Positions 8,677 to 37,746 of a stretch of 37,764 nucleotides of DNA are shown piece by piece. The translations under genes and the position numbers were made by a program. The stretch's first letter is position 1; the number at the start of each line of letters is the position of its first letter. The stretch lies in assembly GCA_964644805.1 (NCBI GenBank), contig CAZXXF010000001.1, forward strand, positions 1 to 37,764, given 5' to 3'. Under the pieces are notes generated by a model. That model worked only from the letters and a program-made list of their open reading frames with translations, had not been told where the DNA came from and searched no databases. Source of the stretch: an uncultured Candidatus Saccharibacteria bacterium (GTDB taxonomy: Bacteria; Patescibacteriota; Minisyncoccia; Minisyncoccales; PEYH01).

Positions 8677-9120
8677 CTATGGACAGAAACTGTTTGCATT
8701 GGCGCATAATTGCGTCGCAGAAACATCCGTTGCGAACCGGCCGACGCTGTCAATGCAAAGATAATTATTTGCCTCGGTCAATCTTACATTAACGCAATAG
8801 CTGTCGCTATCGGCATAGCAATATACTCTTCCTCCGCTTTCACTTATTCCCTGCTGAATATGCACAAGAGCCGGCCAGCTGAAATTGGCGCTGTTGAAAT
8901 CTCCGCCGGGCGGAGTGGCGCACAAGCTAACATAACCGTCTGTGGCGCCCATGAATATTCTCTCGGCCAATTTTCTTGCCTCGGCCAAATCAGAAGCTAT
9001 TTTGGTGTTTTTGGACCGCAAAACAGCCGTTCTTGCCGACGCGACAATCAATACGACCAAAATGGCAAATATCATTACCACTATTAAGACTTCCATTAAT
9101 GTAAGACCCCTTGATTTCAT
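8677..9120 (-). CDS. Type IV pilin paralogue (Cys-rich)
   Basis: MKSRG|LTLMEVLIVVMIFAILV with Glu+5. The globular part has six Cys and ends in ...CANANSFCP, the same Cys pattern as the upstream pilin. Confidence 0.8.
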   Translation of the reverse strand: MKSRGLTLMEVLIVVMIFAILVVLIVASARTAVLRSKNTKIASDLAEARKLAERIFMGATDGYVSLCATPPGGDFNSANFSWPALVHIQQGISESGGRVYCYADSDSYCVNVRLTEANNYLCIDSVGRFATDVSATQLCANANSFCP

Positions 9121-35817: not shown

Positions 35818-35905
35818 GCGCGGGTGCTGTAATTGGTAGCCAGGCAAGGTTGAGGACCTTGTGTCCTTAAAAGACGTAGAGGTTCAAGTCCTCTCCCGCG
35901 CACCA
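35818..35905 (+). tRNA. tRNA-Leu (anticodon GAG), CCA encoded
   Basis: Acceptor GCGCGGG/CCCGCGC, anticodon arm CAAGG-TTGAGGA-CCTTG, long variable arm, T arm AGAGG-TTCAAGT-CCTCT, 3' ACCA. Confidence 0.9.
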
Positions 35906-37360
35906 TTTCGGAAATAGCAAGGCAGAGGAAGCCGCCTCGCTTCGCTCGGCGGCCAGTTTGTATTGAATTTTCGGGGCAAAACCGAATTGGCGATTTTCTA
36001 AAACATGGTTCGAGCCGATTGTTTTCAGAAATGTTGTCATTTCCTCTTTGTTTTCTGATTGAACTAAATTCGCAGCTTGATTTAAGGATAAAACAAACTC
36101 ACGAGCCGGTTCGAGCCAAGACAACCCTTTTTGTTCAAAATCTCTAATTTTCTCGCCAAGCTCGACCTTTTGGGTAAGTAACTTATCTTTTCTCGCTTTG
36201 TAATCATCGGCAGAAATGACTTCGCTAAGATAAGCGTCAAGTAGTTTTTCGAGCTTGGTTTCGATTTCAGTTAATTCCATTTTGAGATTTTGAACAGCAG
36301 TTTTAGCTTCCTCTTTTGCTCGCTCCTCGTCTTTTTGTAGTTCCGCCAAAACTTTTTCTGTGTCTTGGCTCGACAAAGAAACTTTTTGAAGATAACTTCT
36401 GATCTGTTCGGTTAGAAGTTCCTCTCGCAAATAATGCTTTTCTTGGCACGGTCCTTTCTTTTTGGTGCAATGGTAGTAATGATGTCCCTTTTGTATTTCG
36501 GCAGTAATGGCGCAACCACATGAAGCGCATTTGAGTAAGCCAAGAAAAGCAAAATGATGTTTACGAATATCTTTTGACTTTCCGCGTTTTTTCATCACTT
36601 CTTGGCAAGTATCAAAAAGTTTCTTCGAGATTAACGGCTCTTGAGTTCCTTCAAAAACCTCTCCCTTAAATTTCATGAGACCAATATAGAAAATATTTTG
36701 TAGAATTTTTTGCAAACTACTGATTGAGATTTTGTTGTTCTTGTTACCACGAAGATTGTGTTTGACGCACCAATTTGCGAGAGAATGAAGCGGATAATTT
36801 CCAGCGGCATAAAGCTCAAAAACTTTTTTCACCAGTGGAGATTTTGCGGGGTCAATATCTACTCCTCGCGTTCTTGCATTGTTAAGATAGCCAACCGGAG
36901 CCCAGCCAGGCCATACGCCATTTCGTATTTTTTGGCGCAATCCACGCTTCACATTCTCTCGCAAATTATCTACAAAATATTTTGATTGACCAAAGGCGAT
37001 ATTCAACATGAACAAGCCTTGTGGTGTCGCTTCGAACCAAAATGTTGGAAATTTAAGGGAGCGAATCAAGCCGCGATCAACGAAATGGATAATTTTGCCT
37101 CCGTCTACACTATTGCGAGCTAATCTATCCGGGTGCCATGCAATTATCCCGTCCGCCTTGCCTTTTTCGAGTAATGACAACATTTCTGCGAATTTCATTC
37201 GCCCGGGCTCTTTGGCGGTTTTGGCCTCGCAAAGCGAGGCAACAATTTCCAATTTTTCTTTGGCGGCATACTCTTGCAGCTCTACGAGCTGCGCTTCAAT
37301 ACTCAAAACCTGGCGGTCATCTTCTTCGGTAGATTTTCTTGCGTATAATATGTATCTCAT
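35867..37360 (-). CDS. Large serine recombinase (resolvase/invertase N-domain, recombinase domain, zinc ribbon, coiled coil)
   Basis: MRYILYARKSTEEDDRQ with the catalytic Ser in YARKST, HPDRLARN, recombinase domain GW.PVGY, zinc ribbon CASCGC...HYYHC....C and a long coiled coil. The last 13 codons are antisense to tRNA-Leu. Confidence 0.9.
   Translation of the reverse strand: MRYILYARKSTEEDDRQVLSIEAQLVELQEYAAKEKLEIVASLCEAKTAKEPGRMKFAEMLSLLEKGKADGIIAWHPDRLARNSVDGGKIIHFVDRGLIRSLKFPTFWFEATPQGLFMLNIAFGQSKYFVDNLRENVKRGLRQKIRNGVWPGWAPVGYLNNARTRGVDIDPAKSPLVKKVFELYAAGNYPLHSLANWCVKHNLRGNKNNKISISSLQKILQNIFYIGLMKFKGEVFEGTQEPLISKKLFDTCQEVMKKRGKSKDIRKHHFAFLGLLKCASCGCAITAEIQKGHHYYHCTKKKGPCQEKHYLREELLTEQIRSYLQKVSLSSQDTEKVLAELQKDEERAKEEAKTAVQNLKMELTEIETKLEKLLDAYLSEVISADDYKARKDKLLTQKVELGEKIRDFEQKGLSWLEPAREFVLSLNQAANLVQSENKEEMTTFLKTIGSNHVLENRQFGFAPKIQYKLAAERSEAASSALLFPKWCAGEDLNLYVF
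35900..35997. repeat. Inverted repeat A (98 bp), left copy
   Basis: Exact reverse complement of 37396-37493, compared base by base (98/98). It begins with GCACCA, the last 6 nt of tRNA-Leu. 51 of 98 positions are G/C. Confidence 0.95.
35999..36025. repeat. Inverted repeat B (27 bp), left copy
   Basis: TAAAACATGGTTCGAGCCGATTGTTTT is the exact reverse complement of 37604-37630. It is itself an imperfect dyad (AAAACA...TGTTTT around TCGA). Confidence 0.95.
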
Positions 37361-37368
37361 ATGATTTG

Positions 37369-37395
37369 GATTAAAAATTTTTCTTTTCTTCTTTC
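37369..37395. repeat. Inverted repeat C (27 bp), proximal copy
   Basis: GATTAAAAATTTTTCTTTTCTTCTTTC is the exact reverse complement of 37634-37660. It lies 8 nt upstream of the recombinase ATG and directly abuts repeat A'. Confidence 0.95.
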
Positions 37396-37493
37396 AAAAT
37401 CGCCAATTCGGTTTTGCCCCGAAAATTCAATACAAACTGGCCGCCGAGCGAAGCGAGGCGGCTTCCTCTGCCTTGCTATTTCCGAAATGGTGC
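37396..37493. repeat. Inverted repeat A' (98 bp), right copy
   Basis: Reverse complement of 35900-35997, located in the recombinase upstream region. Confidence 0.95.
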
Positions 37494-37603
37494 AGTATTC
37501 TTGAATTAGTCCGAACGCATTTCGCCGCCTGCGGCGGCGAGGAACCCCCCGCGAATTCGGAGCGGCTTCGCCGTGAGATTTCAAAACCGCCAAAGAGCCC
37601 GGA

Positions 37604-37630
37604 AAAACAATCGGCTCGAACCATGTTTTA
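37604..37630. repeat. Inverted repeat B' (27 bp), right copy
   Basis: Reverse complement of 35999-36025. It is separated from A' by a 110-bp G+C-rich spacer (65 of 110 G/C by hand count). Confidence 0.95.
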
Positions 37631-37633
37631 ACT

Positions 37634-37660
37634 GAAAGAAGAAAAGAAAAATTTTTAATC
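37634..37660. repeat. Inverted repeat C (27 bp), distal copy
   Basis: GAAAGAAGAAAAGAAAAATTTTTAATC is the reverse complement of 37369-37395. Confidence 0.95.
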
Positions 37661-37717
37661 ATTAAATTCATAGGATTTTGACCAAGAAACAGCAGAAATG
37701 CTGATTTTTTGTTGGGC

Positions 37718-37746
37718 TTGACAGATAGCACTAAATATGCTAAACT
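37718..37746 (+). promoter_or_regulatory. Outward-facing sigma70-like promoter with an extended -10
   Basis: TTGACA (37718-37723), 17-nt spacer ending in TGc, TAAACT (37741-37746). It points rightwards out of the window, divergent from the recombinase. Confidence 0.5.

Follow-up and report, generated by a model that had tools for sequence, protein, structure and literature searches.

A candidate divergent control region, built from inverted repeats and an internal attP copy, beside a large serine recombinase gene of Patescibacteria

The stretch of DNA analysed here (the window, 37,764 nucleotides [nt] of contig CAZXXF010000001.1 from an uncultured Candidatus Saccharibacteria bacterium) ends with a large serine recombinase (LSR) gene and the leader upstream of it (37361 to 37660), in which every part of the control region appears to be an inverted copy of another part of the same mobile element. 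We favor, with a probability of about one half, the interpretation that this stretch is a divergent control region working at the DNA level, which would combine an inverted attachment site attP carrying a split promoter for a cargo gene, mirrored start regions with a silencing role, a recombinase gene devoid of a promoter, and inversion across the long repeat A/A' as a switch. From sequence comparison, the whole unit can be described as an integrative element of about 3 kb in Patescibacteria, made of the recombinase gene and one cargo gene. About 1 to 1.6 kb of the window's element, including the cargo gene and the attL site, lie past the contig end, and for this reason the control region cannot be understood from the window alone.

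The window recombinase, encoded on the minus strand (35867 to 37360; longest open reading frame [ORF], 497 amino acids [aa]), is a canonical LSR. Its product matches the Pfam families Resolvase (PF00239, 1.1e-21), Recombinase (PF07508, 1.6e-14), and Zn_ribbon_recom (PF13408, 5.1e-07), the motif YARKST places the serine at residue 10, and the nearest solved structural relative is the A118 integrase (4KIS). A protein search at E values up to 1e-20 returned more than 7800 homologues, many of them 75 to 92% identical and named after many Patescibacteria lineages, and a scan of one GTDB genome per species yielded 575 loci encoding LSR relatives, 80 of which were fetched. The main comparison set consists of the 54 loci with a complete LSR gene and at least 380 nt upstream; they span many candidate phyla, with 67 to 91% protein identity, and the counts out of 54 given below refer to them. 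The loci L002 and L003 are 84% identical to the window across leader and gene. A phage origin was rejected, since the search of IMG/VR gave only two partial matches, and we found in the searchable literature no description of this recombinase family or of RNA-guided serine recombinases. The last 11 or so residues of the protein are set by the host tRNA, as the ORF runs into the tRNA antisense strand (35867 to 35899 in the window), which accounts for the variable length (488 to 656 aa) of the database homologues.

A repeat finder recovered four inverted pairs in the window, namely, the pairs A, B, and C, which are as the sequence-only reading had described them, and one further pair that it did not contain. 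Coordinates are given on the + strand of the window and, in gene sense, relative to the ATG as position 0. Repeat A, in its tRNA-proximal copy on the attR side (35900 to 35997), is 98 nt long and 100% complementary to the leader copy A' (37396 to 37493), which forms the left arm of the internal inverted attP and holds a predicted -35 box; in gene sense, the two lie at 1363 to 1460 and -133 to -36, respectively. The minus strand of the tRNA-proximal copy encodes about 32 C-terminal LSR residues. The gene copy of repeat B (35999 to 36025, LSR nt 1335 to 1361 on the minus strand) pairs over 27 nt, at 100%, with the leader copy B' (37604 to 37630, sense on the + strand; -270 to -244). Repeat C (37369 to 37396, 28 nt; -36 to -9) adjoins the LSR start codon and corresponds to the LSR translation-initiation region on the minus strand; its outer arm C' (37633 to 37660; -300 to -273), 236 nt away, is a perfect match that mirrors this start region. 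The additional pair (37203 to 37240 with 37565 to 37602) spans 38 nt at 82% identity, with a core of 21 nt at 100%. It involves the gene segment L-P-R (37203 to 37269, minus strand), in which R comprises LSR nt 137 to 157 (37203 to 37223), P is the palindrome GCCTCGCtttGCGAGGC (37224 to 37240), and L comprises nt 91 to 119 (37241 to 37269). R is copied in the leader (37582 to 37602, sense on the + strand, 21 nt at 100%; -242 to -222), and L is copied beside the distal end of the element in complete loci. Within the gene, repeat E is a perfect 16-nt inverted repeat, with its 5' arm at 37173 to 37188 (LSR nt 172 to 187) and its 3' arm at 36026 to 36041 (nt 1319 to 1334), the latter abutting B with no gap.

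The remaining part of the leader, X1 (37494 to 37581), is a copy of the other end of the element and represents the right arm of attP. It bears T-loop-like motifs and the 8-bp hairpin TCGCCGCC-tgc-GGCGGCGA (37522 to 37540), followed by the palindrome CGAATTCG (37552 to 37559); both had been noticed earlier and can be read directly in the sequence. The G+C counts reported for the leader segment X (65/110) and for A (51/98) also match, against 39.7% in the contig.

The same set of inverted repeats occurs at the same relative positions in 54/54 complete loci, and repeat A is found in nearly all loci, its copies being 94 to 100% identical in most. The chance expectation for perfect repeats of 27 to 98 nt within 2 kb is negligible. 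An assembly artefact, considered because the contig ends 104 nt past the structure and the lengths 28 and 98 recall k-1, was ruled out by the recurrence of the set in 54 independent assemblies made with different assemblers. A miniature element (MITE) with 28-bp terminal repeats was likewise rejected, as there is no target duplication, all internal segments are copies of element parts, and the arrangement is conserved family-wide. It might be argued that the leader is a nonfunctional remnant of a second, inverted copy of the element, held similar by occasional gene conversion. It does have the form of an internally deleted inverted copy with deletion endpoints at hairpin bases, and the mismatches between the copies are unbiased, as in drifting DNA copies. 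However, the architecture is identical across all the loci compared in spite of their divergence, segments of 21 to 28 nt are too short for efficient conversion and yet track synonymous changes, and the key promoter positions described below are invariant, so that we regard such decay as extremely improbable.

The identity of the leader segments emerges from the integration target. The tRNA-Leu(gag) gene (35818 to 35905, + strand; called by ARAGORN, Rfam tRNA 49.2 bits) extends into repeat A with its last 6 nt, GCACCA (35900 to 35905), and in almost every locus the 3' end of the LSR gene overlaps a tRNA 3' end convergently. Thirteen tRNA identities serve as targets (Leu, Arg, Met, Tyr, Ile, Gly, Lys, Phe, Asn, Gln, Val, Ala, and Glu). 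At the 3' junction, A' ends in TGG plus 1 to 5 nt, and the tRNA body follows; in the leader, the same A' with the same few nt is joined to the conserved X1 (AGTATTCTTGAATTAGTCCGAACGCATTTCGCCGCC...). The core varies with the local tRNA, for example, TGGTGC, TGGTGG, TGGCTC at tRNA-Asn, and TGGA at a tRNA-Ala. Wherever the upstream sequence is long enough (38 loci), X1 occurs a second time, 830 to 2430 nt upstream and oppositely oriented; this distal copy is in most loci 94 to 100% identical to the leader copy and is preceded by nonconserved, often terminator-like DNA (D') that ends in the same core. The three junctions A'+core-tRNA, D'+core-X1, and A'+core-X1, compared in about 40 loci, have a common core of 2 to 8 nt, which follows the discriminator base. 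They can be read as the attR, attL, and attP sites, respectively, of a classical site-specific integration. The junction copy in the leader is therefore an intact attP in inverted orientation, kept inside the integrated element, with its core TGGTGCAG at 37488 to 37495. Thus, the tRNA-junction sequence noticed earlier in the leader turns out to be the crossover core of this A'-X1 joint and not a guide-like copy of the target.

From the comparison of the three junctions in L068, L004, and L019, we infer that crossover takes place at the discriminator/C74 dinucleotide, which in the window is A73-C74 (35902 to 35903). In the tRNA arm, the distance from TGG to the start of the T-loop motif TYGARY is 19 nt (28/29 loci), and in the X1 arm it is 24 nt (23/29). 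In the A118 integrase model, the motif of the attP half-site lies about 5 bp further out than that of attB, and this is the basis for telling the two sites apart. In the first part of X1 (37494 to 37525), there are two T-loop-like sequences, CTTGAAT and TCCGAAC; relative to the genuine T-loop motif in the tRNA arm, the former is displaced by 5 nt toward the core and the latter by 5 nt away from it. Such motifs being present with no tRNA called, a degenerate tRNA fragment in X was ruled out. The inferred crossover dinucleotide of L049, L055, and L065, at tRNA-Asn or similar genes, is GC, which is palindromic; with serine integrases, a palindromic dinucleotide should permit integration in either orientation. 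No empty tRNA site was retrieved, and look-ups with the exact recombinase, L19, and FtsH proteins gave nothing useful. The circle-type joint A'-X1-P-L' was met solely in tandem arrays or short contigs (L014, L097, and L098). Between attL and attR, only the LSR gene and one variable cargo gene are found, and no gene for a directionality factor was seen in this interval, such factors being diverse.

In gene sense, a complete locus begins with D'-X1, P, and L', continues with the variable cargo gene on the other strand, and then reads C, B, R', P, X1'-A, and C' up to the ATG of the recombinase, which is followed by L, P, R, E, the gene body, E', B', and finally A' joined to the tRNA. The locus is thus composed of two modules, each enclosed by inverted repeats of about 100 nt, the cargo gene by X1 and X1' and the recombinase gene by A and A', and their interface is the inverted attP. 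The cargo gene always lies on the strand opposite the LSR gene and differs even among close relatives; methyltransferases, a radical-SAM protein, a short-chain dehydrogenase, a flavoprotein, and many secreted proteins are among the examples. In about 20 related loci, the cargo ATG directly follows C', in the same ...AATCATATG context as the recombinase start. This shared context identifies C and C' as start regions, mirrored between two divergent genes. As for the window, its last 104 nt are homologous to the cargo promoter region of L006 and L008 and contain a sigma-70-like promoter, TTGACA-17-TAAACT (37718 to 37746, + strand), pointing out of the contig toward the cargo gene. It is preceded by a bidirectional terminator-like hairpin, CAGCA-gaaa-TGCTG (37690 to 37712), with a T-run on both strands, which is kept in L006, L019, L021, and L032.

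The attP joint itself has the appearance of a promoter. Across the core, the window reads TTGCTA (37473 to 37478) as a predicted -35 box, a 17-nt spacer that includes TGGTGCAG, and TATTCT (37496 to 37501) as a predicted -10 box, so that the putative promoter (37473 to 37501, + strand) points rightwards, away from the LSR gene and toward the cargo gene. Among the 54 loci, the column counts are T52 T52 G51 (C/A)(A/C)(A/T) for the -35 box, inside A', and T42 A51 T48 (T/A)(C/T) T51 for the -10 box, inside X1, with a spacer of exactly 17 nt in 52/52 loci. The invariant hexamer positions, TTG and TA...T, are those that weigh most in sigma-70 promoters. The attL site lacks the -35 box (0 to 2 matches in 28/35 loci), and the promoter would exist only where A' and X1 are joined. 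We thus propose that the conserved A'-X1 joint acts as a promoter, made permanent by the internal copy and aimed at the cargo gene. The joint of the window is weaker than in most relatives, and since a terminator follows about 200 nt downstream, in this lineage it may give merely a short + strand RNA; the fold of this putative RNA (37508 to 37716) is not unusually stable (z = -1.6). On the other strand, no conserved sigma-70 promoter faces the LSR gene from the leader (at most 6/54 loci at any position), and none was found in the window. A discrete minus-strand leader RNA, as contemplated in the sequence-only reading, is accordingly not expected, the strongly conserved promoter motif being on the opposite strand.

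According to the DNA-level interpretation, the division of the promoter between A' (-35) and X1 (-10) would provide a permanent internal junction promoter on the + strand for the cargo gene. A transcript entering from outside would hold both C arms, and their fold-back pairing would hide the start region. In the present orientation, the recombinase, promoter-less and antisense to tRNA read-through, would be off; inversion across the 98-nt A/A' repeat would move the LSR gene to a position immediately after the tRNA, where no C arm precedes it, and so turn it on.

When metagenome contigs were scanned for B'-A'-X1 on a single strand, a pattern impossible in the common arrangement, 11 loci matched. 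The LSR module is flipped relative to the cargo module in L088, L089, L091, L095, and L096, L092 being a deleted version, and L097 and L098 have a circle- or tandem-type A'-X1-P-L' joint. In L091, a tRNA-like 3' end is followed by A-C'-ATG and the gene through B'-A', then by X1-P-R-B'-C'-ATG of the cargo gene through L-P-X1', and then by the flank; here the recombinase stands directly behind the tRNA-like sequence, without the C arm. This tRNA-like 3' fragment (8776 to 8853, minus strand), with T-arm, acceptor strand, and CCA, is called by neither ARAGORN nor Rfam and lies 60 nt after a complete tRNA-Lys that has no encoded CCA.

As another kind of switch, the 236-bp core between C and C' might flip at this 28- to 35-bp inverted repeat, turning the junction promoter toward either the cargo gene or the recombinase. 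An inverted repeat around a promoter-bearing segment between divergent genes with identical start contexts is what such an invertible promoter would look like, and the identity of C and C' is kept across lineages though their sequence changes. Nevertheless, the orientation of the core is uniform across 54/54 loci and every metagenome locus inspected (as assemblies, not reads), C and C' are unlike att half-sites, and no dedicated invertase gene is present; we therefore hold this possibility to be very unlikely.

Several observations weigh against inversion across A/A' and against the DNA-level interpretation in general. The flipped isomers could be misassemblies across the perfect 98-nt repeat, and all 54 GTDB loci are in one orientation, from which it follows that the state seen in the window is at least dominant. 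The two copies of A are merely 76 to 89% identical in L002/L003, L036, L051, and L077, where the gene is intact, and to our knowledge LSRs do not normally recombine attP with attR. The junction promoter is a motif-based prediction: in the window, it fits 8/12 positions and is not called by a standard scan, and the conserved hexamers could equally be explained as binding determinants of the recombinase. Finally, a model at the DNA level leaves unexplained the short repeats B, R', and E with their exact three-way-junction abutment, as well as a 170-fold excess of inverted repeats in the LSR gene, both of which are described in the following.

The sequence-only reading had proposed that the leader could fold and, if transcribed, either form a long duplex with the 3' end of the same message or make a stand-alone structured RNA. 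The minus strand of 37361 to 37660 folds at -111.7 kcal/mol (z = -4.8 versus shuffles), dominated by the C:C' stem, and the fold ensemble agrees on this stem and two small hairpins alone. The proposal of helices was borne out in the homologous loci, which contain the repeats and keep them by compensatory changes. The leader copy of B tracks synonymous changes of its coding partner at 7 positions (for example, -264/1355, with AT in 32 and GC in 12 sequences), R' does so at 5 positions (for example, -231/146, with GC in 29 and TA in 17), and the intragenic helix E:E' shows compensatory changes at 3 positions. Double changes occur also in the intragenic helices 393-408:573-588 and 987-999:1237-1249, and in C:C' a UA pair is replaced by CG in 10 to 11 of 35 sequences. 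Moreover, the repeats abut in the register of three-way junctions, with 0 nt between E' and B', 0 to 1 nt between B' and A', and 1 nt between B and R'. The LSR gene holds 26 perfect 12-mer inverted-repeat pairs, compared to 0.15 in synonymous-codon shuffles (0/300 reach 26) and 0 to 9 elsewhere in the contig, and its minimum free energy (MFE) z-scores versus shuffles are -7.1 in sense and -5.5 in antisense. Nested perfect inverted repeats of the coding region (35906 to 37360) include nt 377-391:656-670, 393-408:573-588, 735-748:971-984, 809-821:913-925, and 987-999:1237-1249, and several of the intragenic repeats show conservation or co-variation within the family. It is therefore plausible that pairing constrains a single-stranded form of the nucleic acid.

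These data could be accounted for by a regulator acting at the transcript level, in which the leader and the LSR message, or antisense tRNA read-through, would pair via C:C', B:B', R':R, A:A', and E:E', leading to a block of translation and/or cleavage by RNase III, with pairing as the main reason why the repeats are kept. In support of this explanation, one can point to the true double changes at synonymous sites and in intragenic helices, to the linkers of 0 to 1 nt that make B:B', R':R, and E:E' a nested three-way junction, and to the inverted-repeat excess with the z-scores of gene and leader. On the other hand, mismatches do not show the G-U excess over A-C expected of RNA helices on either strand (59 versus 62 in A, 43 versus 46 in B, 19 versus 48 in R, and 11 versus 18 in E), and no promoter is available to put the leader on the LSR message, though read-through from the tRNA or a circle joint might do so. 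The helices A:A' and C:C' cross others and give a pseudoknot topology, and sequence from upstream of the cargo gene, outside any plausible recombinase transcript, would have to take part in X1:X1' and L:L'. In the RNAalifold consensus of the leader (-18 kcal/mol; covariation term, -0.95), C:C' and a single hairpin in A are the sole elements, and Rfam searches of both strands, with E values up to 1, gave the tRNA and chance matches alone, in agreement with the earlier statement that no known RNA family is present. Overall, of the structured RNA first proposed, the helices with compensatory changes stand, and the missing G-U excess and the poor consensus fold speak against it; we consider regulation at the transcript level unlikely. 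In particular, one continuous duplex between the 5' and 3' ends of the message is impossible, as the order B-X'-A in the leader faces B'-A' at the 3' end, and only a three-way junction or a pseudoknot can result. Selection for exact complementarity, acting either on both strands or at the level of DNA, would be in keeping with the data.

The absent wobble bias would also fit DNA pairing. In a further explanation, single-stranded DNA, after uptake or transfer, or a full-length RNA would fold via three three-way junctions, placing X1 and A' side by side on the internal X1'-A template and so rebuilding a double-stranded attP together with the junction promoter. All repeat triples are in cyclic register for such a splint (C-B, B'-A', and A-C'; B-R', R..E, and E'-B'; X1-L', L-R, and R'-X1'), and the leader interior is the exact complement of the circular element minus its two long stem-loops. 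Both stems, of about 100 nt, go far beyond the need of a recombinase site, and the gene-wide inverted-repeat excess would be compatible with a folded single strand. In addition, deletion derivatives end exactly at hairpin bases (at P in L004-type loci and at the X1 hairpin in L084), which shows that the stems form in vivo. Against this stand the pseudoknotting in cis of two of the three junctions, the distance of 1 to 1.5 kb between the arms, and the fact that no single-stranded stage of the life cycle is shown by these data; moreover, no serine recombinase is known to us to act on a folded single strand. We hold such a splint to be very unlikely, yet it and the regulator at the transcript level are the alternatives that deserve to be kept in view. 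Slightly less remote, though still distinctly unlikely, is the broader notion that the element is a self-folding nucleic acid, with junctions that would extrude both genes as stem-loops and dock the termini, attP and promoter being rebuilt from one strand without an excision factor.

Apart from their bearing on folding, the derivatives and arrays of the element deserve description. In L004, L005, and L012, which are tRNA-Met loci, the gene is truncated, lacking the first 39 codons with the catalytic serine, and X1 is joined straight to R. This form corresponds to the exact product of a deletion between the two P copies at the base of the L':L stem, and several database proteins of 443 to 470 aa are probably the same dead truncated form. 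L084 is cargo-less: at about -205 to -137 from its ATG, X1 and X1' meet head to head at a GC-rich hairpin, the whole cargo module being gone. Tandem arrays occur in L006 (1121 to 1711), L014, L048, and L098, where the distal X1 of one element abuts the 3' end of a further recombinase gene, which in L006 is of a different subfamily. Hybrid sites therefore seem to serve as targets, and elements pile up beside a tRNA. In L094 (Ga0209515_10000218), about 1.3 kb upstream of the match, tRNA-Arg is followed by A-B-E, the reverse-complemented gene body, E'-B'-A', and X1; an inverted repeat of 141 nt flanks the gene body, and the gene lacks its 5' part. Either the 16-nt E repeat was the site of a rearrangement, or the assembly is chimeric. 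Bins with several copies of the element exist, for instance, with three in CAZZBC01. In many loci of the GTDB scan, contigs end inside repeat A, about 50 to 150 nt upstream of the ATG, or within the first 23 to 38 codons (e.g., L001, L007, L009, L029, L058, and L080; L011, L041, L050, L053, L069, L076, and L085), and it appears that assemblies of Patescibacteria bins often break at these elements.

Compared to known systems, the element shares with the large serine integrases of phages (A118/LI, Bxb1, and phiC31) the domain order (Resolvase, Recombinase, zinc ribbon, and coiled coil), the logic of hybrid junctions, in which attP x attB gives attL + attR with a short core, and the 5-bp outward shift of the motif in the attP arm relative to the attB arm. 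Different from them, it targets the discriminator/CCA end of at least 13 tRNA identities instead of a single fixed site, it is only about 3 kb long with one cargo gene and no directionality factor gene seen, and it retains an intact inverted attP, with both genes in inverted repeats of about 100 nt. For TnpX, the LSR of Tn4451, a junction promoter formed at the circle joint has been described (Lyras & Rood 2000, cited in PMC13023037). According to this account, Tn4451 and Tn4453 resemble our element in being LSR elements with -35 and -10 boxes on opposite ends, united only at the circle joint. What sets the present element apart is the permanent internal copy of the joint when integrated, with a predicted promoter aimed at the cargo gene and not at the recombinase.

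In lifestyle, the nearest analogues are the tycheposons of Prochlorococcus, just as Tn4451 is the nearest in function. Tycheposons are small cargo elements that pile up in tandem at tRNA 3' ends (10.1101/2020.12.28.424599). Small size, cargo, insertion at a tRNA 3' end, and tandem stacking are common to both; tycheposons differ in their tyrosine recombinases, each for one tRNA, in the direct partial-tRNA repeats at their flanks, and in having no internal inverted att copy.

With regard to control, fold-back inhibition and antisense control of the transposase are known in IS10 and IS50. By analogy, in transcripts from outside the translation-initiation region would be occluded through pairing with its inverted copy; here, however, the arrangement is mirrored for two divergent genes, and there are extra pairings to coding segments and the 3' end. 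The resemblance to the bridge (seek) RNAs of IS110/IS1111 lies in a noncoding stretch upstream of the recombinase gene that matches the element end and a few target bases. The enzyme is a serine recombinase and not a DEDD (RuvC-like) one, the complementarity comes in blocks of 21 to 98 nt (98 + ~90 nt) rather than as short bipartite guides placed in two loops, the bases that match the target are those of the attP core, the conserved promoter points in the opposite direction, and Rfam gives no match. Thus, none of the bridge-RNA features looked for was found, and the first description of the likeness to recombinase-associated guide RNAs as superficial was apt. Similar to invertible promoters (fimS, Hin, and Bacteroides invertons), there is an inverted repeat around a promoter-bearing segment beside a recombinase gene, but the C/C' segment is without orientation polymorphism, and the sole isomer observed is the whole LSR gene flipped across A/A'. 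Folded single-strand sites, such as CTX-phi attP(+), integron attC, and the Frpo promoters of conjugative plasmids, are used by tyrosine recombinases or RNA polymerase on local hairpins. The inverted repeats of the element may likewise be able to rebuild a double-stranded site or promoter from one strand; in contrast, its arms are 1 to 1.5 kb apart.

The recombinase family is very abundant and seemingly undescribed in the searchable literature. It is plausible that the elements are the main route by which Patescibacteria, with their streamlined genomes, gain genes, one cargo gene per copy being brought in beside a tRNA. By recognizing the universal T-arm together with the discriminator/C74 dinucleotide, closely related enzymes would reach at least 13 kinds of tRNA; they are a case from nature of serine integrases that are easy to retarget, and one of interest for genome engineering. 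The combination of an internal inverted attP, a split promoter, mirrored start regions, and an LSR gene saturated with co-varying inverted repeats has no described counterpart, and this architecture poses the testable question of whether a serine recombinase element makes use of nucleic-acid folding in its life cycle. If the self-folding notion were true, for example, for incoming single-stranded DNA in these naturally DNA-scavenging hosts, the leader would serve the element as its own splint or guide, which is no known principle of serine recombinases.

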